A DNA stretch of 20,765 nucleotides from a virus (lineage: Duplodnaviria; Heunggongvirae; Uroviricota; Caudoviricetes): IMG/VR virus record IMGVR_UViG_2703718852_000001; one strand, 5' to 3'. This document shows, one piece after another, positions 1 to 17,457 of this stretch (the stretch's first letter is position 1; every line of letters begins with the position of its first letter). Under the pieces are notes generated by a model. It ran no database searches and had not been told where the DNA came from. It saw nothing but the letters and a program-made list of their open reading frames with translations. The position numbers and the translations under genes were made by a program.

Positions 1-19
1 CTATTTGATAAATATTAAA

Positions 20-1315: not shown

Positions 1316-1334
1316 TAGTTAGTGTGGCTTTTAG

Positions 1335-1619
1335 TCAAGTAAGATGACGTCTTGGTCTCGCTGATGCCTGGCGCTCAATCCAGCGATCAATTTCTTCCAG
1401 GTTGTAAAAGCATGGACTGTTATCCCATGGCATACCGTCATGAGCGACATGCTTATATTCCCTTCCTTCCATAAACGATTTTTCCCGGGCCTTTTTTAAC
1501 GTACCTTTTTTTATTCCTTTCAGCGCAATTAACTGCTCTTCGGATACGCGGTGGAAGTGCTGCTGATGTCGAATCCTAGCGTGATGACTATGAAGCGGGA
1601 AAAACTCCGGTCGAAGCAT
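1335..1619 (-). CDS. Putative excisionase-like small protein (xis position), 94 aa or shorter
   Basis: ORF ends 19 nt upstream of the int start on the same strand, the slot xis occupies in lambdoid phages. Contains ..EGREYKHV.., reminiscent of the lambda Xis DGREY wing. Function is inferred; the true start may be an internal Met. Confidence 0.35.
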   Translation of the reverse strand: MLRPEFFPLHSHHARIRHQQHFHRVSEEQLIALKGIKKGTLKKAREKSFMEGREYKHVAHDGMPWDNSPCFYNLEEIDRWIERQASARPRRHLT

Positions 1620-1669
1620 ATTGTGATGAGTGGGGCGATGAATGAGCGAGATTAATTATCAGGAAGGGC

Positions 1670-1929
1670 ATGAAACGGCGGGGCAAGCAAAACCAGTGGC
1701 ATGGCGATATCGCTACGTGAAAAAAGGCGTTACGGACTTTCAGGGGAAGTAGTGGTCTGGTGACTGGAAATATGTACCGAAAAAAGAGGATTGTAACGAC
1801 AGGCCGAACTATCAAATTCAGGCCTTATTCACTGCCTCACCAGTCCCAGTTACATCAGAAGAACTGGTTAAAGCTGTGCACTTTTATGAACAACTAAAAC
1901 GCGAAAATCCACCAACATCCGGCAACTAG
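1670..1929 (+). pseudogene. Decayed gene remnant (serial frameshifts, no usable start for the longest frame)
   Basis: Three consecutive short open frames: ATG 1670 to TGA 1720, ATG 1701 to TGA 1763, and a start-less 58-codon frame 1753..1929 ending ..EELVKAVHFYEQLKRENPPTSGN. Consistent with a frameshifted pseudogene. Confidence 0.2.
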
Positions 1930-2183
1930 ATTAATGGATTAACTATGTCGGTTAAACGACCAGCCAACTGAAAAAGCGGAAACCTGATTACAGGTTGCCA
2001 GATAAGGCAATGAGCTACCTGGCGCGGAACGGACTGATAAGTATGGGGAATGTTTTACGATGAACCTTTAGACTAAAGAGTTTGTAACGCTATGTAAGTG
2101 ATTTTTTCTGGTTTAGATATTTATATGTCCGGCCAAATTGAGGTGTGTTTAAATGTAATTGCACATTGATTGTAGGAGGAATA

Positions 2184-2363
2184 ATGAAAAACGCATTGCA
2201 GTTTTTGTTTGTTGCGTTCTGGTTGTTCGCATCATGTATGCCCATCATCTTCACAGCAAGGTATATGGAAAAAGTTGATGTTTTGATATTAATATTTGGA
2301 TATATAAATGCCCTTTTTTTAGGGGTGTTCATGGCGGTCATGTGCATTGAATACTGGCGGTAA
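2184..2363 (+). CDS. Small hydrophobic (predicted two-helix membrane) protein, 59 aa
   Basis: Internal ATG at 2184 of track ORF 2145..2363, preceded by AGGAGG at 2174-2179. Translation MKNALQFLFVAFWLFASCMPIIFTARYMEKVDVLILIFGYINALFLGVFMAVMCIEYWR has two hydrophobic stretches. Lies in an AT-rich segment. Confidence 0.45.
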   Translation: MKNALQFLFVAFWLFASCMPIIFTARYMEKVDVLILIFGYINALFLGVFMAVMCIEYWR

Positions 2364-2559
2364 ATACAGCGAACTCCATTGGTTTAGTTGGATATTTACT
2401 GTGCTGGACAAAAACGGTTTGCGGGGAAATCTTAGTTAAGTAGAATGACTGCGGGTGCTTGAGGCTATCTGCCTCGGGCATGGACACCAACGGCAGATAG
2501 AGAAAAGCCCCAGTTAACATTACGCGTCCTGCAAGACGCTTAACATTAATCTGAGGCCA

Positions 2560-4260
2560 ATTTCATGCTAGACACATGTAGGTTAGCCTCTTACGTGCCG
2601 AAAGGCACGGAGAAGCAGGCTATTGTTAACACCAAGCTGTAATGTCCCCTTTGAACCATTCTAAAATGTCCCCAGACAATTCTCTGGGGGATTTTTCATG
2701 ATCAAAGAGACTGTTACGATGAGTCATAAGGAACTCCACCGACTTCAGATTATTCAGGAACAAGCTGCGGCACGCATTGGCATTTCTATTCGGCAGGTTA
2801 AACGTCTGGTGCAACGGTATAGAAATGAAGGGCCTTCTGGTCTGGTTTCCCACCGACGTGGAAAGCGTCCTAATAATTCCTTTTCTACTGAATTCAGAGC
2901 AACAGTAATTTCACTCCTCAAAGGCCGTTACGCTGATTTTGGACCTACGTTTGCGTGCGAAAAATTGCGCGAGATACACGGTTTATCTTTATCCGTTGAA
3001 ACTCTCAGAAAGTGGATGATAGAAGAGGGGTTATGGCGTGAACGCCGTCGTAAAATTGCCCGTATATATCAACGCCGCATGCGACGACCATCTTACGGTG
3101 AACTGATCCAGATTGATGGCTCACCTCATGACTGGTTTGAAAATCGAGGCCCCAGATGTACACTGATCGTTTTCATTGATGATGCCACCAGTGCGTTGAT
3201 GGCGTTGCGTTTTGTGCCTGCTGAAACAACCCGGGCTTACATGGAAACCCTCCGGGGTTACCTTAATGATCATGGCGTACCGCTCGCTCTCTACTCTGAT
3301 AGACACAGTATATTCAGGGTAAATAACCCAGAGCGGGAAGGTGAGCTGACCCAGTTCACTCGTGCGATAAAGACACTGGGCATCGAGCCAATCCATGCCA
3401 ACAGCCCGCAGGCAAAAGGGCGGGTAGAGCGCGCCAATCAGACACTACAGGACAGGCTGGTCAAAGAAATGCGGCTTCAGAATATCAGTGATATTGAAAC
3501 AGCAAATGCATGGTTGCCGACCTTTATTGAAGCCTATAACAACCGGTTCGCTACGTCGCCTCGTACTACTGATAATGCTCATCTTGATGTGCACCATTCT
3601 GAAGAGGAACTGGGTTATATCTTCAGCCTACAGGCGAAGCGCGTTCTGTCTAAAAATCTCACTTTCCAGTACAAAAGCAGTGCGTTTCAGGTACGCAGTG
3701 AGGGCCGGGGATATCGACTTAGGCATTCGGTTGTTACTGTATGCGAGAACTTTGACGGTGAAATTAACGTTCTGTATGACGGGAAAGCGCTGGGCTGGGA
3801 AAAGTATGTTGATGGCCCGGAGCCTATACCACTGGATGATGAAAAGAGTGTCCATGAACGAGTGGATAATGCCCGTATTGATTTACGCTCAAAATACTAT
3901 GTTAAACCTAAAGCTGACCATCCCTGGCTTACGCGCCGAACGCAAAGTCATCAGCAAGTTAAGCCCCCGAAGTTACCTAAAAAGAAGCCTGATCCCGATA
4001 AAAAAGATTGAAACCAAGATCGATTCGGTTGAGTGCATATCCATTCATAGGGTAGATTCTTAAGTCGCGTTTCTGGTGTTCATTTTCGGGTGGTTTGTTA
4101 CTTGTTTTACCGGGGATATGCCAGAAACGCGCTGAGTCAGTCTGGGCGGTGCGCGTAATGAGGCGTTATGGTAAATAGCCTATGCTAATGTCCGCTAAGA
4201 GCAAGAAGCGGAAGTTGGCAGTTTTGTGGACTGTCCCCACAAAAGTGACTACAGAAATAG
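2560..4260 (+). mobile_element. Insertion sequence carrying the IS481-like transposase; ends not resolved
   Basis: Single transposase ORF with flanking non-coding DNA; I could not identify convincing terminal inverted repeats or a target duplication by eye. Bounds are approximate. Confidence 0.3.
2698..4011 (+). CDS. DDE transposase, IS481-like (retroviral-integrase-type catalytic core), 437 aa
   Basis: Track ORF 2698..4011. N-terminal HTH region (..ISIRQVKRLVQRYRNEGPSGLVSHRRGKRP..) followed by DDE-type motifs (..QIDGSPHDW.., ..LYSDRHSIF.., ..ANSPQAKGRVERANQTL..), as in IS481/IS3-type transposases. Confidence 0.85.
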   Translation: MIKETVTMSHKELHRLQIIQEQAAARIGISIRQVKRLVQRYRNEGPSGLVSHRRGKRPNNSFSTEFRATVISLLKGRYADFGPTFACEKLREIHGLSLSVETLRKWMIEEGLWRERRRKIARIYQRRMRRPSYGELIQIDGSPHDWFENRGPRCTLIVFIDDATSALMALRFVPAETTRAYMETLRGYLNDHGVPLALYSDRHSIFRVNNPEREGELTQFTRAIKTLGIEPIHANSPQAKGRVERANQTLQDRLVKEMRLQNISDIETANAWLPTFIEAYNNRFATSPRTTDNAHLDVHHSEEELGYIFSLQAKRVLSKNLTFQYKSSAFQVRSEGRGYRLRHSVVTVCENFDGEINVLYDGKALGWEKYVDGPEPIPLDDEKSVHERVDNARIDLRSKYYVKPKADHPWLTRRTQSHQQVKPPKLPKKKPDPDKKD

Positions 4261-4404
4261 TTGCAATTCATAATTGATCATGGGTTGTCAGTTAAACTCG
4301 TGGCGATTTAAATAGACTAATTGGGAGTGCGTCCATTACTTATATCTTGTAATGTTAACTATCAGAAATGATACAAAGATAATATGTCTTTAAAGAAAAG
4401 GCTG

Positions 4405-4433
4405 ATGGCGAAAAGTGGCCCGATGAGGGCCAC
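4405..4433 (-). terminator. Intrinsic terminator downstream of flxA
   Basis: Perfect hairpin GTGGCCC-GATGA-GGGCCAC (4415-4433), followed on the minus strand by UUUUCGCC, 15 nt past the flxA stop. Confidence 0.5.
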
Positions 4434-4447
4434 AATACGGCTGTCAC

Positions 4448-4780
4448 TTAGACGTAAATATCAATGGTGCCAGCGGTATTTGTATCGTCTTTTTTCTCTT
4501 CTTTTTTATCAGGCTGAACTGTCGCGTCTTCATTCTTTTTCTCTGCCTGCTGCCTTAACAACTGCTCCAGTTGAGCCCAGAGGCTTTCAATTTGCTTCTG
4601 TACCAATGCAGCCATTTCTTTTTTCTGCTGTGTCGTCATCCCCTCTTCCGATGAGATTTTCCCAAGCTTTTCAGTCAGCACCTGAATTTGTCTTGTGATT
4701 TTGGCTATTTCTGATGTTCCTTCCGGGGCGGAGTTGTTTGAAATAACGGTTGAGGTATTTCCCTGAATTGTGACAGACAT
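4448..4780 (-). CDS. flxA: FlxA, FliA-regulated protein, 110 aa
   Basis: Track ORF 4448..4780 minus (MSVTIQGNTSTVISNN..., acidic/Lys-rich C-terminus). AAGGAG SD upstream; sigma-28 consensus promoter immediately upstream; synteny with ydfV-relBE as in Qin. Confidence 0.85.
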   Translation of the reverse strand: MSVTIQGNTSTVISNNSAPEGTSEIAKITRQIQVLTEKLGKISSEEGMTTQQKKEMAALVQKQIESLWAQLEQLLRQQAEKKNEDATVQPDKKEEKKDDTNTAGTIDIYV

Positions 4781-4803
4781 AGATTTCTCCTTTTAAAAAA
4801 GCA

Positions 4804-4830
4804 CTATCGGCATGCACAAAAAAATCTTTA
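4804..4830 (-). promoter_or_regulatory. Sigma-28 (FliA) class 3 flagellar-type promoter for flxA
   Basis: Minus strand reads TAAAGATT-N11-GCCGATAG, against the sigma-28 consensus TAAAGTTT-N11-GCCGATAA, positioned about 25-50 nt upstream of the flxA ATG. Confidence 0.6.
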
Positions 4831-4982
4831 ATCGTATTTCTTGTGTCATTAATTGTTTGATGTTCAGATTGTTTTCCTCGCGGGCTGGCGCGCCTCAGAA
4901 AGTAAAGCTTGTTGACAGGGGTAAACGTTCGGCAATAATTTTCTGCCGCATGCGGGTGTTGCATAAAACGTGTTACGTTCCT

Positions 4983-5288
4983 TTATCGACAGGTCAGGTC
5001 ACCGCTCACCCGCCGACGAGAAAGCAACACTGACATGCTAAAGCAAAAAATAGATGAATAAGTTGAGTTGTGCATATGTAGCCTGACCGTCACAAAGTAT
5101 ATGGTGTCTGTACCAGTAAGATGATGGCCGGACTCTTTAAAAACGAGCTGACCTGCACAATACAGGATGGACTTAGCAATGGCTGCTCCTGGCACAAAGC
5201 GGACAGTGATCACCGTTCTTACGACTACTTTCTGACTTCCTTCGTGACTTGCCCTAAGCATGTTGTAGTGCGATACTTGTAATGACAT
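4983..5288 (-). CDS. ydfV: Hypothetical protein (ydfV-like ORF), 101 aa; coding status doubtful
   Basis: Track ORF 4983..5288 minus. Its start codon lies inside the relBE operator palindrome, the sequence is low-complexity, and I saw no convincing SD. Confidence 0.3.
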   Translation of the reverse strand: MSLQVSHYNMLRASHEGSQKVVVRTVITVRFVPGAAIAKSILYCAGQLVFKESGHHLTGTDTIYFVTVRLHMHNSTYSSIFCFSMSVLLSRRRVSGDLTCR

Positions 5289-5301
5289 TTGTAATTACAA
5301 G
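5249..5301 (+). promoter_or_regulatory. relBE promoter and operator (relO)
   Basis: TTGCCC (5249-5254), 17-nt spacer, GATACT (5272-5277), overlapping the palindromic operator CTTGTAATGACATTTGTAATTACAAG (5276-5301) immediately upstream of relB. Confidence 0.7.
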
Positions 5302-5312
5302 AGGTGTAAGAC

Positions 5313-5552
5313 ATGGGTAGCATTAACCTGCGTATTGACGATGAACTTAAAGCGCGTTCTTACGCCGCGCTTGAAAAAATGGGTGTAACTCCTTCTGAAG
5401 CGCTTCGTCTCATGCTCGAGTATATCGCTGACAATGAACGCTTGCCGTTCAAACAGACACTCCTGAGTGATGAAGATGCTGAACTTGTGGAGATAGTGAA
5501 AGAACGGCTTCGTAATCCTAAGCCAGTACGTGTGACGCTGGATGAACTCTGA
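5313..5552 (+). CDS. relB: RelB antitoxin, 79 aa
   Basis: Translation MGSINLRIDDELKARSYAALEKMGVTPSEALRLMLEYIADNERLPFKQTLLSDEDAELVEIVKERLRNPKPVRVTLDEL recognised as RelB; stop overlaps the relE start (TGATG). Confidence 0.95.
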   Translation: MGSINLRIDDELKARSYAALEKMGVTPSEALRLMLEYIADNERLPFKQTLLSDEDAELVEIVKERLRNPKPVRVTLDEL

Positions 5553-5839
5553 TGGCGTATTTTCTGGATTTTGACGAGCGGGCACTAAAGGAATGGCGAA
5601 AGCTGGGCTCGACGGTACGTGAACAGTTGAAAAAGAAGCTGGTTGAAGTACTTGAGTCACCCCGGATTGAAGCAAACAAGCTCCGTGGTATGCCTGATTG
5701 TTACAAGATTAAGCTCCGGTCTTCAGGCTATCGCCTTGTATACCAGGTTATAGACGAGAAAGTTGTCGTTTTCGTGATTTCTGTTGGGAAAAGAGAACGC
5801 TCGGAAGTATATAGCGAGGCGGTCAAACGCATTCTCTGA
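5552..5839 (+). CDS. relE: RelE mRNA-interferase toxin, 95 aa
   Basis: Translation MAYFLDFDERALKEWRKLGSTVREQLKKKLVEVLESPRIEANKLRGMPDCYKIKLRSSGYRLVYQVIDEKVVVFVISVGKRERSEVYSEAVKRIL recognised as RelE; translationally coupled to relB. Confidence 0.95.
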   Translation: MAYFLDFDERALKEWRKLGSTVREQLKKKLVEVLESPRIEANKLRGMPDCYKIKLRSSGYRLVYQVIDEKVVVFVISVGKRERSEVYSEAVKRIL

Positions 5840-5910
5840 ACCAAAGCATGACATCTCTGTTTCGCACCGAAGGTGACACTTCTGCTTTGCGTTGACAGGA
5901 GAAGCAGGCT

Positions 5911-6066
5911 ATGAAGCAGCAAAAGGCGATGTTAATCGCCCTGATCGTCATCTGTTTAACCGTCATAGTGACGGCACTGGTAACGAGGAAAGACCTCTGC
6001 GAGGTACGAATCCGAACCGGCCAGACGGAGGTCGCTGTCTTCACAGCTTACGAACCTGAGGAGTAA
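5911..6066 (+). CDS. hokD: HokD (RelF) Hok-family membrane toxin, 51 aa
   Basis: ATG 5911 to TAA 6064-6066, translation MKQQKAMLIALIVICLTVIVTALVTRKDLCEVRIRTGQTEVAVFTAYEPEE. Not in the ORF track (below 60 aa). Directly downstream of relE. Confidence 0.9.
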   Translation: MKQQKAMLIALIVICLTVIVTALVTRKDLCEVRIRTGQTEVAVFTAYEPEE

Positions 6067-6134
6067 GAGACCCGGCGGGGGAGAAATCCCTCGCCACCTC
6101 TGATGTGGCAGGCATCCTCAACGCACCCGCACTT

Positions 6135-6165
6135 AACCCGCTTCGGCGGGTTTTTGTTTTTATTT
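6135..6165 (+). terminator. Intrinsic terminator after hokD
   Basis: Hairpin CCCGC-TTCG-GCGGG (6137-6150) followed by TTTTTGTTTTTATTTT. Confidence 0.6.
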
Positions 6166-6282
6166 TCAACGCGTTTGAAGTTCTGGACGGTGCCGGAATA
6201 GAATCAAAAATACTTAAGTAGCGCGCAGGGATAAGAGGGATGGTCCCTTAAAGGGGAGAGCTAATTATCCGGAAGGATTCTG

Positions 6283-6534
6283 ATGATGAACATCGAAGAA
6301 CTGCGTAAAATTTTTTGTGAAGATGGCCTCTATGCTGTGTGCGTTGAAAATGGAAATCTTGTTAGTCATTACCGCATTATGTGTTTGCGAAAGAATGGGG
6401 CTGCGTTAATTAATTTTGTGGATGCTCGGGTCACGGACGGATTTATCTTGCGCGAAGGTGAGTTTGTCACTTCATTACAGGCATTGAAAGAGATCGGAAT
6501 AAAAGCTGGCTTTTCTGCTTTTTCAGGAGAATAA
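6283..6534 (+). CDS. rem: Rem, small prophage protein, 83 aa
   Basis: Track ORF 6283..6534 (MMNIEELRKIFCEDGLYAVCVENGNLVSHYRIM...); GGAAGGA SD; synteny between hokD and ydfU as in Qin. Confidence 0.8.
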   Translation: MMNIEELRKIFCEDGLYAVCVENGNLVSHYRIMCLRKNGAALINFVDARVTDGFILREGEFVTSLQALKEIGIKAGFSAFSGE

Positions 6535-6600
6535 ACTCATCTACAATCTTGCGCGGGGCTGAACTCCCGCTGAGTAACACCGTGCCACCGGAGAAAACCG

Positions 6601-6879
6601 ATGGCACGCAACGCAAAATATTACAATTCTGATAATTCGCCCGTTCTTGCCTGCACGCACGGGCGGTATTCTCACGCATTCAAGTCTGAATGGTTCCAGC
6701 ACCCTCCATGCACTGCAGAACAGGCCGAATGGCTGATTCATTCTTACCGCAGGCGCGGGTTCGAGGTTAAGAAAGCTCTCAGTCTCGACTATCGGCACTG
6801 GATAATCTCTGTCAGGCTGCCTTATTCCGAACGCCCACCACGTGCGTCCCGCACTTTCCAGCAACGGATCTGGAGGTAA
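6601..6879 (+). CDS. Hypothetical protein, 92 aa, translationally coupled to ydfU
   Basis: Track ORF 6601..6879 with GGAG SD at 6590-6593 (7-nt spacing). Its TAA stop (6877-6879) is 1 nt before the ydfU GTG start and the ydfU GGAGG SD lies within its last codons. Cys/His-containing (..ACTHGRYSHAFKSEWFQHPPCTAEQ..). Not a gene I recognise. Confidence 0.5.
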   Translation: MARNAKYYNSDNSPVLACTHGRYSHAFKSEWFQHPPCTAEQAEWLIHSYRRRGFEVKKALSLDYRHWIISVRLPYSERPPRASRTFQQRIWR

Positions 6880-6880
6880 C

Positions 6881-7930
6881 GTGCGGGTATTACTTAGACC
6901 TGTTCTGGTGCCTGAGCTTGGGCTGGTGGTCCTTAAGCCGGGCCGTGAATCCATACAGATATTTCATAATCCTCGAGTGCTGGTGGAACCGGAACCAAAA
7001 AGCATGCGTAATCTGCCATCCGGAGTCGTTCCTGCCGTTCGCCAGCCGCTGGCGGAAGACAAAACATTGCTGCCGTTTTTTAGTAACGAACGGGTGATTC
7101 GTGCTGCTGGCGGCGTTGGCGCATTGTCCGACTGGCTATTACGTCATGTTACATCCTGCCAGTGGCCTAATGGCGATTACCATCACACTGAAACAGTCAT
7201 TCACCGTTATGGTACCGGCGCAATGGTGTTGTGCTGGCACTGCGACAACCAACTGCGTGACCAGACATCGGAATCACTGGAGCTGCTTGCTCAACAAAAT
7301 CTGACAGCATGGGTGATTGACGTCATCCGTCACGCAATAAGCGGTACGCAGGAGCGGGAATTATCTTTGGCTGAATTATCCTGGTGGGCGGTCTGCAATC
7401 AGGTGGTGGATGCACTACCTGAGGCTGTATCGCGTCGTTCGCTGGGATTACCAGCGGAAAAAATCTGCTCGGTGTACCGCGAAAGCGACATCGTACCGGG
7501 AGAGCAGACCGCCACCAGCATATTGAAACAACGCACAAAAAATCTTGCACCGTTGCCTTACGCCCACCAGCAACAAAAATCACCACAGGAAAAGACGGTG
7601 GTAAGCATCACCGTTGATCCAGAGTCTCCGGAATCTTTCATGAAGCTGCCTAAACGTCGCCGCTGGGTTAAGGAGAAATACACACGTTGGGTTAAGACAC
7701 AGCCGTGTGCTTGCTGCGGTATGCCAGCCGACGATCCGCATCATCTGATTGGTCACGGGCAGGGCGGAATGGGAACAAAAGCACATGATCTCTTTGTGTT
7801 GCCTTTGTGCAGAAAGCATCACAACGAGCTGCATACGGATACAGTGGCATTTGAAGATAAGTATGGCTCCCAACTGGAGCTGATATTTCGTTTTATCGAT
7901 CGCGCGCTGACAATTGGCGTACTGGCGTAA
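6881..7930 (+). CDS. ydfU: YdfU, DUF968 family protein with C-terminal Cys/His (HNH-like) motif, 349 aa from GTG 6881
   Basis: Track ORF 6842..7930. GTG at 6881 preceded by GGAGG (6872-6876) gives 349 aa. C-terminus ..CACCGMPADDPHHLIGHGQGG...LCRKHHNELH.. Alternative start GTG 6842. Confidence 0.8.
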   Translation: MRVLLRPVLVPELGLVVLKPGRESIQIFHNPRVLVEPEPKSMRNLPSGVVPAVRQPLAEDKTLLPFFSNERVIRAAGGVGALSDWLLRHVTSCQWPNGDYHHTETVIHRYGTGAMVLCWHCDNQLRDQTSESLELLAQQNLTAWVIDVIRHAISGTQERELSLAELSWWAVCNQVVDALPEAVSRRSLGLPAEKICSVYRESDIVPGEQTATSILKQRTKNLAPLPYAHQQQKSPQEKTVVSITVDPESPESFMKLPKRRRWVKEKYTRWVKTQPCACCGMPADDPHHLIGHGQGGMGTKAHDLFVLPLCRKHHNELHTDTVAFEDKYGSQLELIFRFIDRALTIGVLA

Positions 7931-7943
7931 GTGGAGAACGAGC

Positions 7944-8696
7944 ATGAACCTTGAAGCCTTACCAAAATATTACTCCCCAAAATCTCCAAAATTGAGCGAT
8001 GACGCTCCAGCGACAGGCACCGGTTGTTTAACAATTACGGATGTAATGGCAGCGCAGGGGATGGTGCAGTCGAAAGCACCACTTGGGTTGGCCTTATTTC
8101 TGGCAAAAGTTGGTGTTCAGGACCCTCAGTTTGCGATTGAAGGCCTGCTAAATTACGCGATGGCACTGGATAACCCGACATTGAACAAATTGAGTGAAGA
8201 AATCCGGTTACAGATTATTCCTTACCTCGTGAGTTTTGCCTTTGCTGATTACTCCAGGTCTGCGGCAAGTAAGGCTCGCTGTGAGCATTGTTCAGGTACG
8301 GGATTTTATAATGTATTGCGCGAAGTGGTGAAACACTACAGACGCGGGGAATCTGTAATCAAGGAAGAATGGGTGAAGGAACTATGTCAGCATTGCCATG
8401 GTAAGGGCGAAGCCAGCACAGCGTGCAGAGGGTGTAAGGGTAAAGGGATTGTTCTGGATGAAAAAAGAACCCGGTTTCATGGCGTACCGGTATATAAGAT
8501 TTGTGGGCGTTGTAATGGAAACCGGTTTAGTCGTTTACCGACCACGCTGGCACGACGTCATGTCCAGAAGCTGGTACCAGACCTGACCGATTATCAGTGG
8601 TATAAGGGGTATGCGGACGTCATTGGTAAACTGGTAACAAAGTGCTGGCAGGAAGAAGCATACGCGGAAGCGCAATTGAGGAAGGTGACGAGATAA
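7944..8696 (+). CDS. quuQ: Late-gene antiterminator Q homolog, 250 aa
   Basis: Track ORF 7914..8696; ATG at 7944 with GGAG SD (7933-7936) gives 250 aa. Cys-rich zinc-finger-like region (..CEHCSGTG..CQHCHGKGE..CRGCKGKG..CGRCNGN..). Immediately followed by a strong promoter and a terminator (pR'/tR' arrangement). Confidence 0.85.
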   Translation: MNLEALPKYYSPKSPKLSDDAPATGTGCLTITDVMAAQGMVQSKAPLGLALFLAKVGVQDPQFAIEGLLNYAMALDNPTLNKLSEEIRLQIIPYLVSFAFADYSRSAASKARCEHCSGTGFYNVLREVVKHYRRGESVIKEEWVKELCQHCHGKGEASTACRGCKGKGIVLDEKRTRFHGVPVYKICGRCNGNRFSRLPTTLARRHVQKLVPDLTDYQWYKGYADVIGKLVTKCWQEEAYAEAQLRKVTR

Positions 8697-8728
8697 ATGA
8701 TTTTTGCTGAAGATGGCGACATGATGTT

Positions 8729-8757
8729 TGCATTTTTCAAAAAATATGGATAAAATT
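8729..8757 (+). promoter_or_regulatory. Candidate late promoter pR' (sigma-70)
   Basis: TTGCAT (8729-8734), 17-nt spacer, TAAAAT (8752-8757), 33 nt downstream of the Q stop. Confidence 0.55.
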
Positions 8758-8801
8758 TTTTCAACGATGGGCTTTGTATACCCGACGTTAAGAAAAAGTA
8801 G

Positions 8802-8830
8802 AAAACCCGCTGATGAGCGGGTTTTGTGCT
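8802..8830 (+). terminator. Candidate tR' terminator
   Basis: Hairpin AAAACCCGC-TGATGAG-CGGGTTTT followed by GTGCTTT, about 45-65 nt downstream of the predicted pR' start. Confidence 0.5.
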
Positions 8831-8973
8831 TTAAATGGGGCAATGGTAATGTTGAATCTCATCCCGGGACTCATGTCTGTTAACTTATTATTTAGCTGGT
8901 GACTTGGTTATTTGCCTGATGTTTAAAATGTTTTCTTCCAGTACAATGTCCCTAAACACAATGAGTCTGCTTA

Positions 8974-9063
8974 TTATATTATTAGCAGAGCTATTACGGC
9001 CAAAGTACAGCATAAGCTTTTAAAGCCAATCAACCAGTCATCAAGACAGACGGGGTTATTCAT
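8974..9063 (-). CDS. Candidate 29-aa hydrophobic peptide ORF downstream of cspF
   Basis: Minus-strand ATG at 9063 preceded by GGAGAG (plus 9069-9074) with 5-nt spacer; translation [29 protein letters not shown], then tandem TAA stops. Below the ORF-track size cut-off. Confidence 0.25.
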
Positions 9064-9117
9064 AAAAACTCTCCATGTGTGATCCGATGGGGCCTGAAAT
9101 TAAAGCTTTAATATAGC

Positions 9118-9330
9118 TCATGAAAGGTAAACATTGGCAGCTGAAGGGCCACGCAGACCATTTATCCGGCAAAATTCCACGCGTAATCCGGTGGTAATTT
9201 CTTCTGCATCGCGGAGATTGAGCGCTGAAACATGAAGCTGGACATCGATACGACCATCGGATGGGGTGATAAGACCCTTGCCGCTTTTGCCGTCAAAGGT
9301 TTTGACAATTCCTGTCATTTTACGGGACAA
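9118..9330 (-). CDS. cspF: Cold-shock protein family member CspF, 70 aa
   Basis: Translation [70 protein letters not shown] recognised as CspF. Confidence 0.95.
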
Positions 9331-9433
9331 AAAAATTCCTTAATACTGATAACTTGGCGCACTATACACACGTTCCTGAAGAAAGCTATAGTTTTTTGAT
9401 GGGGTTGAAGATGGCTGGATGTCTAAAATAAAC

Positions 9434-9463
9434 ATTGCTTCATATGTTCAACTATGCGTTAAT
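9434..9463 (+). promoter_or_regulatory. cspB promoter (cspA-like) preceding an approximately 160-nt 5' UTR
   Basis: TTGCTT (9434-9439), 18-nt spacer, TTAATG (9458-9463). The same ATGCGTTAATG block recurs upstream of cspI. UTR contains GCCGAAAGGC near the RBS, as in cspA. Confidence 0.45.
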
Positions 9464-9630
9464 GATTGCGTCGGTTTGAAGAACAGACGATATACGAAGT
9501 AGTTTACTAAAGCAGTTCTCATTTCAGGTGTTATTCACTTATTCCTTCTTTGAGTCTCTCCAATTAAGTACGAAGTCGTTTCTGTTATGCAAACCATTTA
9601 TGCCGAAAGGCTCAAGTTAAGGAATGTAGA

Positions 9631-9846
9631 ATGTCAAATAAAATGACTGGTTTAGTAAAATGGTTTAACGCTGATAAAGGTTTCGGCTTTATTTCTCCTG
9701 TTGATGGTAGTAAAGATGTGTTTGTGCATTTTTCTGCGATTCAGAATGATAATTATCGAACCTTATTTGAAGGTCAAAAGGTTACCTTCTCTATAGAGAG
9801 TGGTGCTAAAGGTCCTGCAGCAGCAAATGTCATCATTACTGATTAA
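9631..9846 (+). CDS. cspB: Cold-shock protein CspB, 71 aa
   Basis: Translation [71 protein letters not shown] with RNP1/RNP2 motifs (KGFGFI, VFVHF). Confidence 0.95.
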
Positions 9847-9957
9847 AATTCATCGCTCGTCTGTATACGATAACGAAGAAGGCTGATGCCTGAGTAGAGA
9901 TACGGACAGAGTAGTGAATATTGGATCTCTTTAATAAAAAGTAAGGAGGTCCAATAC

Positions 9958-9993
9958 ATGAAACAATGGCTAGCATATTTGGCAAAATCTTAA
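9958..9993 (+). CDS. Candidate 11-codon mini-ORF with near-perfect SD
   Basis: TAAGGAGGT (9942-9950), 7-nt spacer, ATG 9958; translation MKQWLAYLAKS, stop TAA 9991-9993. Between cspB and the downstream terminator. Confidence 0.3.
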   Translation: MKQWLAYLAKS

Positions 9994-10127
9994 TCAGGAA
10001 AAGTATGCTAACCATTGTGGTGAAGTGCAGGTTTGCTGCATGAATAGTTTTACAGCAGAAGCTAACTGCTGGCATGGCAAAACAAAGTGCGTAAGTGGAT
10101 GACTCCCACAAAAAGCACCACAATCTC

Positions 10128-10152
10128 AAACCCGCTCAGGCGGGTTTTTTAT
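10128..10152 (+). terminator. Hairpin terminator between convergent cspB and the zinc-ribbon gene
   Basis: CCCGC-TCAG-GCGGG followed by TTTTTT (10131-10150). Bidirectional function is plausible but only a short T-run follows on the other strand. Confidence 0.5.
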
Positions 10153-10209
10153 TATCTGCTTTAAATATATTATTAAAATATAAAAAATACTTGTTACTAA
10201 TAAAATCAA

Positions 10210-10380
10210 TCAGGCTACAGCTTTAAGATTTGTCTGGAATACTTTGTTGCAATGAGGGCAGATCAAAAGGGCACCTTTTTGTACTCTTGAAAAACTGTGT
10301 TCTGACTCTTGGGTGCAGTTTGGGCAGGAACATTTAACGAGATAATTACGGCGTGATTTTGAGTTTTTACGTTCTGACAT
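10210..10380 (-). CDS. ynfU: Small zinc-ribbon protein (CxCxxC...CxxC), 56 aa
   Basis: Internal ATG (10380) of track ORF 10210..10431, preceded by AGGAAA SD; translation MSERKNSKSRRNYLVKCSCPNCTQESEHSFSRVQKGALLICPHCNKVFQTNLKAVA. Symbol is from memory of the K-12 small-protein annotation and is not certain. Confidence 0.55.
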   Translation of the reverse strand: MSERKNSKSRRNYLVKCSCPNCTQESEHSFSRVQKGALLICPHCNKVFQTNLKAVA

Positions 10381-10599
10381 AGGCTTTTCCTGTATAAATG
10401 GCCGTATACAGTACACTAAATATGAAAACATTTCTCGTATTATTATTTTATATATGACTTTCTTTCAAAATAATTACCCACATTTTTAATGTGTATGTTT
10501 TTTTAGCGCCGTTGAGAACAACGTGTGCTGTCAAAACTACCCCGTAGACTCCGATCTTTTCAAACATATTGCACCATCCGTGTACATCGGGGTGAGGAT

Positions 10600-10815
10600 A
10601 TGAAATCAATGGATAAGTTAACAACAGGTGTTGCCTATGGCACATCGGCGGGTAATGCTGGTTTCTGGGCATTGCAGTTACTCGATAAAGTAACTCCGTC
10701 ACAGTGGGCTGCAATCGGTGTGCTGGGTAGCCTGGTTTTTGGCCTGCTGACGTATCTGACAAATCTTTATTTCAAGATTAAAGAAGACAGGCGTAAGGCT
10801 GCGAGAGGAGAGTAA
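10600..10815 (+). CDS. essQ: Holin (phage 21 S-type pinholin), 71 aa, dual-start motif
   Basis: ATG 10600 preceded by GGTGAGGA; translation [71 protein letters not shown] resembles the phage 21 pinholin. MKSM-DKL gives a holin/antiholin dual start. Track ORF extends upstream to 10525. Confidence 0.85.
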
Positions 10816-10819
10816 TCCA

Positions 10820-11127
10820 ATGACTCAAGACTATGAACTGGTTGTGAAAGGAGTCCGTAATTTTGAGAATAAAGTTACGGTAACTGTAGCCTTACAGGAC
10901 AAAGAACGCTTTGACGGTGAAATTTTTGACCTGGATGTCGCCATGGACCGTGTTGAAGGAGCTGCGCTGGAGTTTTATGAGGCAGCAGCCAGAAGGAGCG
11001 TCCGGCAAGTCTTCCTGGAAGTAGCAGAAAAATTGTCAGAAAAAGTTGAGTCTTATCTGCAGCATCAGTACTCCTTTAAGATTGAAAATCCTGCCAATAA
11101 GCACGAGCGTCCTCATCATAAATATCT

Positions 11128-11131
<4 letters not shown>
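10820..11131 (+). CDS. ydfR: YdfR, DUF1327-type prophage protein, 103 aa
   Basis: Track ORF 10820..11131, between holin and endolysin; start 5 nt after the essQ stop with GAGAGGAGAG SD. Confidence 0.75.
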
Positions 11132-12155
<1,024 letters not shown>

Positions 12156-12337
12156 GGTAATATTAAATCGGAACATTTACATCGCGGAATGTAAAATTTA
12201 AATAAAAAGGACTCTTCCATGAGCCAAAATTCCTGAAATCTTAAGGGTAAGATAAAAGGTCTTAATCAGAATGACACGTTTTATTAATAAATAAAGCTAT
12301 TCTTTCATTGCTGTGTTTTTCTTTACAAAAGTAATCC

Positions 12338-12367
12338 TTGCTATGGGTGGTTAATCATGCGTTAATG
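12338..12367 (+). promoter_or_regulatory. cspI promoter preceding an approximately 145-nt 5' UTR
   Basis: TTGCTA (12338-12343), 18-nt spacer, TTAATG (12362-12367); shares the ATGCGTTAATG block with the cspB promoter. Confidence 0.45.
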
Positions 12368-12517
12368 GTGTTCTGGTTTGTTACAAATTTATCTGAAGCA
12401 GTCATTGTTATAATTTTATTATTTGTACCTCTTGAGATTTCCTTGTTGGTTTTTCTCTCTGATATTTTTTTTCGGACCATTCTGCCCAAGGGCTAATTTC
12501 TTCAAAAGGTAATAATT

Positions 12518-12730
12518 ATGTCTAACAAAATGACTGGTTTAGTGAAATGGTTTAACCCTGAAAAAGGTTTTGGTTTCATCACGCCGAAAGATGGCAGCAA
12601 AGATGTGTTTGTCCATTTCTCAGCAATTCAGAGCAACGATTTCAAAACATTAACTGAGAATCAGGAAGTTGAATTTGGTATTGAGAACGGACCTAAAGGT
12701 CCTGCCGCTGTTCATGTAGTGGCGCTTTGA
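12518..12730 (+). CDS. cspI: Cold-shock protein CspI, 70 aa
   Basis: Translation [70 protein letters not shown] recognised as CspI. Confidence 0.95.
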
Positions 12731-12929
12731 GGTAGACAATATTACAAACCATATTCACTTTAGATGCCCGTGTTGTCATGGTTCCCAGTATAGAACATCA
12801 TCTTTTGATGTTTCTGACATGAATCCTTTCGGGGCAAAATGTATCTTTTGTAAATCAATGATGATTACATTTGATAATATTTCACAATACTTAAATGCCA
12901 GCCGTCTGTCGTTGGATTTAAAAAAGTGA
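12720..12929 (+). pseudogene. Start-less zinc-ribbon ORF, paralog of the 10210-10380 protein; probably frameshifted
   Basis: Open frame ..HIHFRCPCCHGSQYRTSSFDVSDMNPFGAKCIFCKSMMITFDNISQYLNASRLSLDLKK ending TGA 12927-12929. No ATG/GTG/TTG precedes the first Cys pair. An ATG at 12764 is out of frame by 1 nt at a CCC run. The CxC(x)C...CxxC spacing aligns with the 10210-10380 protein. Confidence 0.35.
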
Positions 12930-13076
12930 AAATGAAGGCTCCTTCGGGAGCTTTTTTGCTTGGTGTCTATTCGATGGATACTCACATACTACGGTAACAT
13001 CATGAAAAAAATCATAGTTTTTTTTAACTCTGAACCAGCAGTGGTAGTGCCAGCGATGACTGGAGTTAACACCATC

Positions 13077-13232
13077 ATGCGTGAATATCCAAATGGCGAA
13101 AAAACACACCTTACTGTAATGGCCGCAGGGTTTCCATCTCTGACCGGAGATCATAAAGTCATTTATGTAGCCGCGGATCGACATGTTACTTCAGAAGAAA
13201 TTCTGGAAGCAGCAATAAGGCTCTTGAGTTGA
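13077..13232 (+). CDS. ynfN: YnfN, small cold-shock-induced prophage protein, 51 aa
   Basis: Track ORF 12960..13232. The 51-aa form starts at ATG 13077 (MREYPNGEKTHLTVMAAGFPSLTGDHKVIYVAADRHVTSEEILEAAIRLLS). Alternative upstream starts at 13056 and 13002; none has a strong SD. Confidence 0.5.
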   Translation: MREYPNGEKTHLTVMAAGFPSLTGDHKVIYVAADRHVTSEEILEAAIRLLS

Positions 13233-13403
13233 TTTGATGCTATTGCATTGATAATTCAGGAAAATTCTCTTTGTCTGTTTGTGTAAAATTTAGACTATCG
13301 TATGTTGATTATTGCGATGTTTCATCTTATCTTTTACACGTTTGCACCATATAATCGACTTACTGTGTAACTGGAAAGTCATAACAGACTAAAAGAGGAA
13401 ATG

Positions 13404-13577
13404 ATGAATATTGAAAACTTAAAAACAAAAGCAGAAGCAGATATTTCTGAATATATAACAAAAAAAATTATTGAACTTAAGAAAAAGACCGGGAAAGAAG
13501 TTACCAGTATTCAGTTTACCGCACGGGAAAAAATGACGGGTCTTGAAAGCTATGATGTCAAGATTAATTTAATCTGA
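13404..13577 (+). CDS. gnsB: GnsA/GnsB family protein, 57 aa
   Basis: ATG 13404 (SD GAGGA at 13394-13398) to TGA 13575-13577; translation MNIENLKTKAEADISEYITKKIIELKKKTGKEVTSIQFTAREKMTGLESYDVKINLI. Below the ORF-track cut-off. Confidence 0.75.
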   Translation: MNIENLKTKAEADISEYITKKIIELKKKTGKEVTSIQFTAREKMTGLESYDVKINLI

Positions 13578-13596
13578 TGTATTCAATAATAAAATT

Positions 13597-13628
13597 TATC
13601 CATAAACCTCGTTTTTACGGGGTTTTGT
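13597..13628 (+). terminator. Probable terminator after gnsB
   Basis: Imperfect hairpin CCTCGT-TTTT-ACGGGG followed by TTTTGTTA. Confidence 0.35.
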
Positions 13629-13728
13629 TATATTTGAATGGTTCCGAATATCTAAATCACAATTGTTGATGGTTTTTATTAAACCAATGCAGTCCGGCTC
13701 AGGAGTGAGAGAAGCCGGACGTTATGGT

Positions 13729-14139
13729 TTAGCGTGGTAAGATCTGTGTAGTTTTCTGGATGCTTTCAGTAAATAGTAATGAATTATCAAAGGTATAGTA
13801 ATATCTTTTTTGTTCGTGGATATTTGTAACCCACCGAAAAACTCCTGCTTTAGCAAGGTTTCTTCTGTATTCCTGAAATGTGATCTCTCTGGATTTCAGC
13901 TTATTAGAGGTCGTTTCTATAAGATGCCTATCCTTTGAAAATTTGACAGACACAATGTTTTTTAGGCCCTTTAATAACACTGTATTATCATTTTTTAATA
14001 CAATATGAACATTCTCTGTGGCTAAATAGTAAATGTAATGTGAGACATTGTGACGTTTTAGCTCAGAATAAAACCATTGATAGTTTAAATCGTTTCGAAC
14101 TTTATCAAATATTTGTTTAAAAATGACTACCTGATCCAT
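13729..14139 (-). CDS. ydfO: YdfO, DUF1398 family protein, 136 aa
   Basis: Track ORF 13729..14154; internal ATG 14139 preceded by GGAAGG SD gives 136 aa ([23 protein letters not shown]...). Hairpin GTCCGGCT...AGCCGGAC (13692-13720) just past the stop. Confidence 0.8.
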
Positions 14140-14196
14140 AGATAAACCTTCCATGTGATATGAGGGGGCGTAGTCTGCACGATTATCTAAATTGCT

Positions 14197-14430
14197 TCAA
14201 TCTGGTCTGACCTGTTTTCTGAGCAATTCAGTAATGTCACTCTTTTCTTTGTTTGCTTCAGAAGAAACTCTTTTTTCTGAGCACAGTCTCCGGCGGCAGG
14301 CTTCAATGACCCAGGCTGAGAAATTCCCGGACCCTTTTTGCTCAAGAGCGATGTTAATTTGTTCAATCATTTGGTTAGGAAAGCGGATGTTGCGGGTTGT
14401 TGTTCTGCGGGTTCTGTTCTTCGTTGACAT
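14197..14430 (-). CDS. ynfO: YnfO, small protein with ribbon-helix-helix-like N-terminal region, 77 aa
   Basis: Track ORF 14197..14430. ..TRNIRFPNQMIEQINIALEQKGSGNFSAWVIEACRRRL.. has a beta-strand/helix/helix pattern typical of Arc/CopG RHH DNA-binding proteins (inference). Confidence 0.7.
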   Translation of the reverse strand: MSTKNRTRRTTTRNIRFPNQMIEQINIALEQKGSGNFSAWVIEACRRRLCSEKRVSSEANKEKSDITELLRKQVRPD

Positions 14431-14559
14431 GAGGTTGCCCCGTATTCAGTGTCGCTGATTTGTATTGTCTGAAGTTGTTTTTACGTTAAGTTGATGCAGA
14501 TCAATTAATATGATACCTGCGTCATAATTGATTATTTGACGTGGTTTGATGGCGTAGAT

Positions 14560-14818
14560 GCACGTTGTGACATGCAGATGATAATTATTATCATTTTGCG
14601 GGTCCTTTCCGGCGATCCGACAGGTTACGGGGCGGCGACCTCGCGGGTTTTCGCTATTTATGAAAATTTTCCGGTTTAAGGCATTTCCGTTCTTCTTCGT
14701 CGTAACTTAATGTTTTTATTTAAAATACCCCCTGAAAAGAAAGGAAACGACAGGTGCTGAAAACGAGCTTTTGGGCCTCTGTCGTTTCCTTTCTCTGTTT
14801 TTGGCCGTGGAATGAACA

Positions 14819-14820
<2 letters not shown>
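14560..14820 (+). other. Lambda-type cos site (cosQ, cosN, cosB region)
   Basis: ..CCGACAGGTTACG GGGCGGCGACCT CGCGGGTTTTCGCTATTTATGAAAATTTTCCGGTTTAAGG.. matches my memory of the lambda genome ends: the 12-nt cohesive end GGGCGGCGACCT lies at 14630-14641, right-end sequence to its left and the left-end cosB region leading into the Nu1 start (ATGGAAGTCAAC at 14819) to its right. Confidence 0.8.
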
Positions 14821-15969
<1,149 letters not shown>

Positions 15970-16882: not shown

Positions 16883-17457
16883 TGGCATTCAGAATGAGTG
16901 AACAACCACGGACCATAAAAATTTATAATCTGCTGGCCGGAACTAATGAATTTATTGGTGAAGGTGATGCATATATTCCGCCTCATACAGGTCTGCCAGC
17001 AAACAGTACCGATATTGCACCGCCAGATATTCCGGCTGGCTTCGTGGCTGTTTTCAACAGTGATGAGTCATCGTGGCATCTCGTTGAAGATCATCGGGGT
17101 AAAACGGTTTATGACGTGGCTTCCGGCGACGCGTTATTTATTTCTGAACTCGGTCCGTTACCGGAAAATGTTACCTGGTTATCGCCGGAAGGGGAGTTTC
17201 AGAAGTGGAACGGCACAGCCTGGGTGAAGGATACGGAAGCAGAAAAACTGTTCCGGATCCGGGAGGCGGAAGAAACAAAAAACAACCTGATGCAGGTAGC
17301 CAGTGAGCATATTGCGCCGCTTCAGGATGCTGCAGATCTGGAAATTGCAACGGAGGAAGAAATCTCGTTGCTGGAAGCATGGAAAAAGTATCGGGTATTG
17401 CTGAACCGTGTTGATACGTCAACTGCACAGGATATTGAATGGCCAGCACTGCCGTAG
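16882..17457 (+). CDS. tfaQ: Tail fibre assembly protein Tfa, 191 aa
   Basis: Track ORF 16882..17457; ATGA overlap with the stf stop; Tfa-like sequence ([28 protein letters not shown]...). Confidence 0.9.

Follow-up and report, generated by a model that had tools for sequence, protein, structure and literature searches.

The DNA analyzed here, a stretch of 20,765 nucleotides from a virus (Caudoviricetes; IMG/VR record IMGVR_UViG_2703718852_000001) that we call the window throughout, carries between positions 7944 and 10815 a gene for a Q antiterminator, a candidate late promoter (pR') and terminator (tR') directly behind it, a group of cold-shock genes, and a holin gene. Window positions 3827-15329 correspond to the Qin cryptic prophage of Escherichia coli K-12 MG1655 in reverse orientation, with 99.87% identity, and the part from 7501 to 12200 is 99.96% identical to E. 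coli K-12. Coordinates are converted as NC_000913.3 position = 1651185 - window position. Of 5,426 complete E. coli genomes, 5,413 contain some part of the studied span and about 1,600 contain 80% or more of it; the features annotated there are ydfT (antitermination protein Q), a holin, and the genes cspF, cspB and ynfU. The genes are as follows, with the sources of each assignment in brackets (ORF, open reading frame).

7944-8696, plus strand: ydfT/quuQ, Q antiterminator of 250 amino acids (RefSeq, Pfam PF03589)
8974-9063, minus strand: ynfS, small protein gene (RefSeq, Pfam YnfS)
9118-9330, minus strand: cspF (RefSeq, Pfam CSD)
9631-9846, plus strand: cspB (RefSeq, Pfam CSD)
10210-10380, minus strand: ynfU, zinc ribbon (RefSeq, Pfam PF23499 with E=6.4e-31)
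10600-10815, plus strand: essQ, P21-type holin (Pfam Phage_holin_2_1)
10820-11131, plus strand: ydfR, lysis cassette (ORF, RefSeq)
11128-11661, plus strand: rrrQ, lysozyme of the lysis cassette (ORF, RefSeq)
11658-12155, plus strand: rzpQ, lysis cassette (ORF, RefSeq)

The lysis cassette essQ-ydfR-rrrQ-rzpQ (10600-12155, plus strand) comprises the first late genes and lies on the same strand as Q. A first-pass annotation, made from the sequence alone, had named Q, an antisense cspF, a sense cspB, a convergent zinc-ribbon gene and essQ; all of these are real and were already in the RefSeq and Pfam annotation, but its list lacked ynfS, the protein product of which has been seen experimentally (PMC6001520). 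The segment from pR' to tR' is carried by 1,627 of the 5,426 complete E. coli genomes (∼30%), with no RefSeq feature beneath it in any listed genome, and in the literature on quuQ, ydfT or Qin together with antitermination we found no description of a Qin pR'.

The Q protein and the candidate promoter behind its gene

QuuQ matches Pfam PF03589, a family that has been equated with that of Q-lambda (PMC9388147), with E=3.6e-54 and 181 bits (cutoff 26.7), and it matches the Q-lambda structures 7UBM, 4MO1 and 7UBJ with E-values from 4.6e-36 (7UBM) to 1.3e-20. Neither Q21 (PF06530) nor Q82 (PF06323) was among its Pfam matches at E<=0.01, and no Q21 structure was among the PDB matches. In an alignment of QuuQ with the Q proteins of lambda, P22, phi80, a Shiga toxin 2c (Stx2c) phage, Klebsiella phage 5 and mEp460, the N-terminal segment, which forms the RNA-exit-channel nozzle in lambda, and a C-terminal VTR are invariant. 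QuuQ aligns with Q-lambda (7UBM) end to end save for one insertion of about 43 amino acids, located where lambda has its zinc-ribbon arm and containing an extra CXXCXGXG zinc motif; the protein also matches Pfam DnaJ_CXXCXGXG, and in the phi80-type Qs the arm insertion is longer still. Judged by these alignments, QuuQ is a member of the lambda-Q family.

A Q-dependent cassette has been defined as a Q gene, the promoter PR', a sigma-dependent pause element, a terminator and the downstream genes (PMC9388147). In Qin the stretch behind the Q gene can be read in these terms.

8728-8733, plus strand: pR' -35 hexamer TTGCAT, read from the sequence, the same hexamer as the phi80 pR' -35
8734-8750, plus strand: 17-nt spacer TTTTCAAAAAATATGGA, candidate Q-binding element (QBE), by conservation and analogy to phi80
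8751-8756, plus strand: pR' -10 hexamer TAAAAT, by sequence, scan and homology
8763-8771, plus strand: predicted start A8763 with the pause element AACGAT (+1 to +6) and a discriminator-like GGG (+7 to +9), by homology to lambda
8802-8829, plus strand: tR' intrinsic terminator, stem-loop 8802-8825 and RNA 3' end at C8829, by scan, fold and Term-seq
8763-8829, plus strand: predicted 67-nt pR' transcript consisting of a 5' stem-loop (8763-8789), an A-rich linker and the terminator hairpin, its 3' end mapped and its 5' end inferred

The pR' hexamers begin 32 nt past the Q stop codon, a position homologous to that of pR' in lambda, P22 and phi80. The first-pass annotation had placed a near-consensus promoter, TTGCAT-17-TAAAAT, at 8729-8757. 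The hexamers and their 17-nt spacing are present, albeit one base further left (8728-8756), whereas the description as near-consensus was overstated: the -35 agrees with TTGACA at 3 of 6 positions and the -10 with its consensus at 5 of 6. Moreover, the 3.6-kb stretch contains 10 promoter-like sites where 7.7 +/- 2.7 would be expected in shuffled sequence, and the pR' hexamers alone are therefore not above chance.

What appears decisive for pR' is homology, rather than the hexamers taken alone. Lambda reads TTGACT-17-TAAATT-TGACTC-AACGATGGG and Qin reads TTGCAT-17-TAAAAT-TTTTTC-AACGATGGG, so that the element at 8763-8771, pause element plus GGG, is identical to that of lambda and stands at the same 6-nt distance from the -10. 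This 9-mer occurs once in the window against 0.12 occurrences expected. P22, Klebsiella phage 5 and SF6 have it too behind their Q genes, and phi80 (TAACGCTGGG) and mEp460 (AATGATGGG) have near-matches. In lambda, AACGAT at +1 to +6 is a -10-like element that is re-bound by sigma70 and causes the +16 pause needed for Q loading, and the GGG that follows it is a discriminator-like element (PMC4005639); the general geometry of such pause elements has also been described elsewhere (PMC7876045). The GenBank record of phi80 annotates a pR' with the -35 TTGCAT, 17-nt spacing, a Q site in the spacer and a terminator ∼50 nt downstream. Going by this homology, the start of Qin pR' is most likely A8763.

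Two further observations concern the same bases. The 5' end of the pR' RNA (8763-8789) can form a stem AACG(A)...(U)CGUU, the loop of which differs in length and sequence between phages, and such a stem is possible in every example of the Q-lambda family examined (Qin, lambda, P22, phi80, SF6, Klebsiella phage 5 and mEp460). Its 5' arm is the pause element, and the conserved CGTT downstream may reflect either an RNA 5' hairpin or a DNA signal. Separately, a 51-amino-acid ORF with a TTG start (8728-8883, plus strand) runs across pR', the pause element and tR' and is annotated as a hypothetical protein in the phage PhiR42_1 (L004 4785-4940); as a gene it is most likely an over-annotation.

Conservation of the module was followed in 80 IMG/VR loci (L015-L094) encoding a Q that is 94-100% identical to QuuQ. 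The promoter-pause pattern and a hairpin at the same position are found in 78 of the 80, in about 20 sequence variants. The pattern used fixes TTGCAT, and invariance of the -35 accordingly holds within the loci so matched. Across these variants the spacer 8734-8750 is nearly invariant while the -10 varies (TAAAAT, TAAGAT, TAGGAT), a combination that fits a protein-binding role of the spacer as QBE, from which binding of Q there may be surmised. Positions +1 to +15 are almost invariant in the 19 aligned variants, and variation starts beyond them; all 19 keep the 5' stem-loop and the terminator hairpin in place, with differing stems and loops that include three pairs with double changes.

Homology shared with an Stx2c phage, SKA5 and the Salmonella phage F1055 starts inside ydfU and covers Q and pR'. 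Its last matching position is 8825 in the Stx2c phage, 8832 in SKA5 and 8779 in F1055, which puts the break at the terminator or about 20 nt before it. In phages with unrelated DNA downstream, a hairpin is nevertheless kept at the tR' position, built from other stems and loops. Over 7501-12200 the window has a perfect (100%) match in PhiR42_1, a 48.7-kb genome that has genes for integrase, immunity, replication, terminase, head and tail.

The terminator and the cargo before the lysis genes

The tR' sequence at 8802-8825 reads AAAACCCGCT-GATG-AGCGGGTTTT with GTGCTTT next to it on the 3' side. For the predicted 67-nt RNA the fold energy is -26.2 kcal/mol (z -5.55). In Term-seq data from K-12 MG1655, a dominant “orphan” 3' end lies at NC_000913.3 1642356 (-), which is window position 8829 (Adams et al. 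2021, PMC7815308, Supplementary file 1). The 61-nt context printed there is identical to window 8779-8839 and places the 3' end at C8829, eight bases past the G+C stem. The position is listed three times in a file that covers three growth conditions; the two rows shown have values of 103,591 and 55,368 and were assigned by their position in the file to LB medium at optical densities (OD) of 0.4 and 2.0. For comparison, the hokD 3' end scores ∼45,000-49,000, and the 8829 end is of the same order or above. An RNA on the Q strand really does end at tR' in uninduced K-12 cells, and the hairpin terminator that the first-pass annotation had put at 8802-8830 is in this way upheld by a stem-loop, a mapped 3' end and a conserved position.

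A second plus-strand 3' end was noted at 8997 (1642188 -), only in the sample assigned to LB OD 2.0. Its score of 87,904 exceeds that of tR' in the same sample; the site is antisense to ynfS, 168 nt beyond tR', and a weak hairpin precedes it. Candidate sources are read-through of tR' or another promoter.

In the scan, the 8802-8825 hairpin counted as a terminator for the minus strand alone; the plus-strand terminator was missed because the T-run there forms part of the stem. On the minus strand the hairpin has the tail CTACTTTTTC and a fold z of -6.37, and it is probably bidirectional. The A-rich tract that supplies the minus-strand U-tail (AAGAAAAAGTAGAAAA, 8790-8801) is present in 56 of 56 IMG/VR loci of the csp-carrying lineages, 54 of them with convergent cspF, and in none of the 22 other loci, a correlation that is phylogenetically confounded in that it comes from only about two lineages. 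This pattern suggests that tR' has been adapted as a bidirectional terminator that would stop cspF-ynfS transcription before it reaches Q. The Term-seq file contains no minus-strand 3' end at 1642370-1642399, and no cspF or ynfS 3' ends are found in the 37°C Term-seq datasets, which suggests that expression of these genes is weak at that temperature.

Between tR' and the holin gene, Qin has ∼1.77 kb of DNA with genes in mixed orientation, which can be divided into three units.

8974-9330, minus strand: cspF and ynfS, antisense to late transcription
9470-9961, plus strand: cspB mRNA with a thermoregulator in its 5' untranslated region (UTR), the coding sequence and a 3' hairpin (9919-9955), sense
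10125-10380, minus strand: ynfU with a terminator hairpin (10128-10147) and a 3' end at 10125, antisense

The Rfam cspA thermoregulator (RF01766) matches at cspB, 9470-9862, with 158.8 bits. Term-seq 3' ends that are very abundant lie at 9959 and 9961 (1641226/1641224 -), past the hairpin at 9919-9955, which has 15 bp and no U-tract, and a further 3' end lies within the cspB 5' UTR at 9551 (1641634 -). The ynfU RNA ends at 10125 (1641060 +). The first-pass annotation had described a cspB/zinc-ribbon terminator at 10131-10150. A hairpin followed by a T-run on the plus strand does exist according to scan and folds, but it spans 10128-10147, and while the 3' end at 10125 speaks for its use by ynfU on the minus strand, the cspB RNA ends earlier, at 9959/9961. 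An 11-codon ORF at 9959 preceded by a strong TAAGGAGG was considered and rejected as a gene: its Shine-Dalgarno-like sequence makes up the 3' side of the cspB hairpin, and the transcript stops right there, at 9959/9961.

The content of this interval varies between phages that share the module. After the module, the Stx2c phage has unrelated ORFs, tRNA-Met, tRNA-Arg and, about 2.5 kb downstream, the stx2 A and B genes; SKA5 has its lysis genes within ∼0.5 kb; and F1055 has other ORFs. Among the 78 IMG/VR loci, 54 have convergent cspF and form two sub-types, with ynfS deleted in one of them; two are interrupted by insertion sequences or cut short; and the other 22 differ in content, some of them having an EssQ-like holin gene 1.4-2.3 kb further on. 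Because the same Q/pR'/tR' module precedes different content in relatives, we regard the cold-shock genes as cargo. A separate 5' UTR and 3' end for cspB and a separate terminator for ynfU indicate that these genes are self-contained units, probably with promoters as well as terminators of their own, and they occupy the interval from tR' to the lysis genes that is the classic place for cargo.

Elsewhere in the window, a second match to the cspA-type thermoregulator (12372-12757, plus strand) lies over cspI, another cold-shock cargo gene, after the lysis cassette, and an Rfam IS009 RNA match (17225-17423, plus strand) lies near the tail-fiber and pin region.

Proposed late transcription across the cargo and its alternatives

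We propose that the region is a late-gene regulatory cassette of the lambda-Q family with cargo inserted behind it, and we put the probability of this reading, with the full mechanism, at roughly 85%. As far as can be judged from sequence, every feature by which a lambda late switch is recognizable appears to be present in Qin, and its late switch would be an ordinary member of a textbook system that happens to be unannotated in the genomes. The first-pass annotation had arrived at the same outline of Q, pR', tR' and cargo before the holin, and this outline is sustained by the homology to lambda, P22 and phi80, the pattern in 78 of 80 loci, the mosaic break and the 8829 end.

The course of events that we infer, from the start site and pause to Q binding and Q-dependent read-through, would be as follows. 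Sigma70 RNA polymerase would start at pR', most likely at A8763, and sigma region 2 would re-bind AACGAT at +1 to +6, assisted by the GGG at +7 to +9, so that the enzyme would stall within the first ∼13-17 nt. Without Q, the polymerase would resume and terminate at tR' (8802-8825), yielding the 67-nt RNA that ends at 8829, and this would be the state in K-12 cultures. Once made, Q would bind its DNA site in the spacer between -35 and -10 and load onto the paused complex, probably together with NusA as Q-lambda does. The modified polymerase would be terminator-resistant and would read through tR' and across the 1.77 kb of cargo, passing ynfS and cspF in antisense, cspB and its 3' hairpin in sense, and ynfU with the 10128-10147 terminator in antisense. 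On the plus strand it would encounter, in order, tR' (8829), the weak hairpin with the 8997 end, the 9551 end, the 9919-9955 hairpin and the 10128-10147 hairpin. After the cargo it would transcribe essQ-ydfR-rrrQ-rzpQ, and the head and tail genes too where a relative is intact. PhiR42_1 is a full-length genome with the same arrangement, and its late operon must therefore be reached across the cargo.

The first-pass annotation had also suggested that late and cold-shock transcription may interfere with each other. Such mutual interference is plausible but speculative. Only ynfS, cspF and ynfU are antisense to late transcription; cspB is in the sense orientation and so would share the late transcript, much like stx in Stx phages.

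Several points weigh against this reading and should be kept in mind. The -35 is weak, and promoter-like sites occur at chance frequency. The surroundings of +16 (T15 A16 T17) do not show the C16-G17 pause motif of lambda, which leaves the position of a pause uncertain. For the predicted start site, the SMRT-Cappable-seq, Cappable-seq, Kim 2012 and Sun 2021 RNET-seq supplements list no coordinate near 1642422 (1640446 in the old numbering), a negative result that is uninformative because the files may be incomplete. The 3' end at 8829 could in principle belong in part to transcripts of the Q gene, since Term-seq cannot distinguish the end of a pR' RNA from that of a Q mRNA. The activity of the QuuQ protein is putative. 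Finally, in the Qin variant of the window, dicC, dicA, dicF, dicB and ydfX of MG1655 were not found in positions 1-5300 (especially 1179-3827). With this segment for immunity and division gone, Q here is without its normal early-promoter and repressor context, and the loss of the dicA/dicC immunity region makes its expression and timing here uncertain. In place of the dic segment the window has an intact integrase gene (20-1315, minus strand), an excisionase-like gene (1335-1619, minus strand), an Rfam sok match (2453-2624, plus strand) and an ORF for a 437-amino-acid protein with helix-turn-helix and rve domains (2698-4011, plus strand), the C-terminus of which corresponds to “ydfW” of K-12.

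A more far-reaching interpretation would hold that the RNA of 8763-8829 is an abundant, constitutive and as yet unannotated small RNA (sRNA) of K-12 and some 30% of sequenced E. coli, acting as a regulator in its own right like StxS in Stx phages, and that tR' has in addition been made bidirectional through the A-tract where cspF converges, keeping cspF-ynfS transcription out of Q. We consider this combination unlikely.

It is rather improbable, too, that the main present function of the cassette in the cryptic Qin is that of a 67-nt trans-acting sRNA like StxS or IsrK, with lysis control being secondary. The abundance of the 3' end over the sampled growth conditions would agree with it, as would the stable fold with two hairpins, a single-stranded AAGAAAAAG linker and a U-rich terminator, and the presence of the segment in 1627 of 5426 complete E. 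coli genomes. There is also precedent, insofar as StxS, IsrK and lambda 6S RNA arise from antiterminated late promoters (PMC7547250). However, the linker is the sole plausible seed region and is not conserved among the variants of the module, and we found no Hfq-binding or target data. An Rfam search of 8700-9100 gave no match at gathering level: the isrK model (RF01394) reached 16.6 bits where 50 are required, like many generic terminator matches, and we took the sub-threshold matches of a permissive search (isrK, leader peptides, P9 and others) as chance hits driven by the terminator hairpin. HnrS, a prophage sRNA of similar size (66 nt), was considered as the identity of the 67-nt RNA and rejected; its paper states that MG1655 lacks HnrS, and it must be a different RNA.

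The hairpin at 8802-8825 might instead serve the flanking genes, as terminator of a ydfU-ydfT mRNA on the plus strand and of cspF-ynfS on the minus strand, with the promoter hexamers an inactive relic. The minus-strand call of the scan, the strong minus-strand fold with its U-rich tail, and the A-tract in 56 loci (54 with convergent cspF) as against 0 of 22 without cspF could all be explained in this manner, and Term-seq is blind to the difference between a pR' RNA and the 3' end of a Q mRNA. Yet the hairpin is found at the same position in phages without cspF, full-length relatives have the very same promoter and AACGATGGG, both of them intact in Qin, and the read score at 8829 is high for a gene of a silent prophage. 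No minus-strand 3' end was found at 1642370-1642399 in the Term-seq file, the A-tract correlation draws on no more than about two lineages, and a hairpin working in both directions would still serve as tR'. On balance we find this explanation very unlikely. Lastly, a separate promoter for the lysis genes between ynfU and essQ, by which late transcription would not need to cross the cargo, is highly improbable. The promoter-like TTTATA-16-AATAAT that could provide it (10447-10474, plus strand, ∼125 nt upstream of essQ) matches at 9 of 12 positions, no better than chance. Q-regulated lambdoid late operons are not known to be arranged in this way, and relatives with other cargo place an EssQ-like holin 1.4-2.3 kb, and Stx2c phages place stx2 ∼2.5 kb, past the same pR'-tR'.

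Read as a lambda-type late switch with cargo behind it, the Qin prophage gains an explicit annotation of promoter, pause element, terminator and 67-nt product, and its tR' accounts for an “orphan” Term-seq 3' end in K-12. Qin-like prophages, present in ∼30% of complete E. coli genomes, and Stx2c toxin phages have one Q/pR'/tR' module in common, and consequently this Q specificity and promoter bear on stx2c expression. The layout of the cargo offers a natural case in which a terminator-resistant polymerase meets convergent transcription units. The current understanding of Q antitermination is unchanged by our results.

Comparison with known late switches

Qin shares with lambda a homologous Q, promoter hexamers directly after the Q gene, a 17-nt spacer, AACGATGGG located 6 nt past the -10, and an intrinsic terminator before the lysis genes. 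It differs in the extra zinc module of ∼43 amino acids in its Q, and in its -35 and spacer, the presumed QBE, so that QBE specificity in Qin is presumably another. Its terminated RNA is predicted at 67 nt, whereas the 6S RNA of lambda has ∼194 nt (start 788 and terminator ∼981 in L003), and its cargo between tR' and holin measures ∼1.77 kb against ∼0.4 kb in lambda. P22 resembles Qin in having a short terminated RNA. The phi80 system is alike in several respects: gp17 is a long-arm Q with extra CXXCXGXG modules, the promoter has the TTGCAT -35 and 17-nt spacing, a Q site is annotated in the spacer, and the terminator ∼50 nt downstream gives a short RNA. However, Q identity is only ∼36-40%, the pause element is TAACGCTGGG, and the holin follows within ∼0.35 kb with no cargo.

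Stx2c phages (LC727877) have a Q that is 94% identical, nearly the same pR', pause element and tR' hairpin, and likewise cargo between tR' and the lysis genes. Their cargo consists of unrelated ORFs, tRNA-Met, tRNA-Arg and stx2AB, all in the sense orientation in contrast to Qin, and the homology to Qin ends at 8825. The module that precedes stx2AB in LC727877 (L005 4001-8701) is of the Qin type, and fifteen records of Stx2c-converting phages match QuuQ.

In the DLP12 prophage of K-12, the Q homologue quuD is likewise followed by antisense cargo, nmpC, and then by the essD holin-lysozyme-spanin cassette; the quuD product has 127 amino acids compared with 250 for QuuQ, and the cargo is a porin gene disrupted by IS5. 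As for StxS, IsrK and lambda 6S RNA, the Qin RNA is by prediction similar to them in arising from pR', ending at tR' and being present in uninduced cells, but no sequence-family membership was found for it (isrK score 16.6 against 50 bits).

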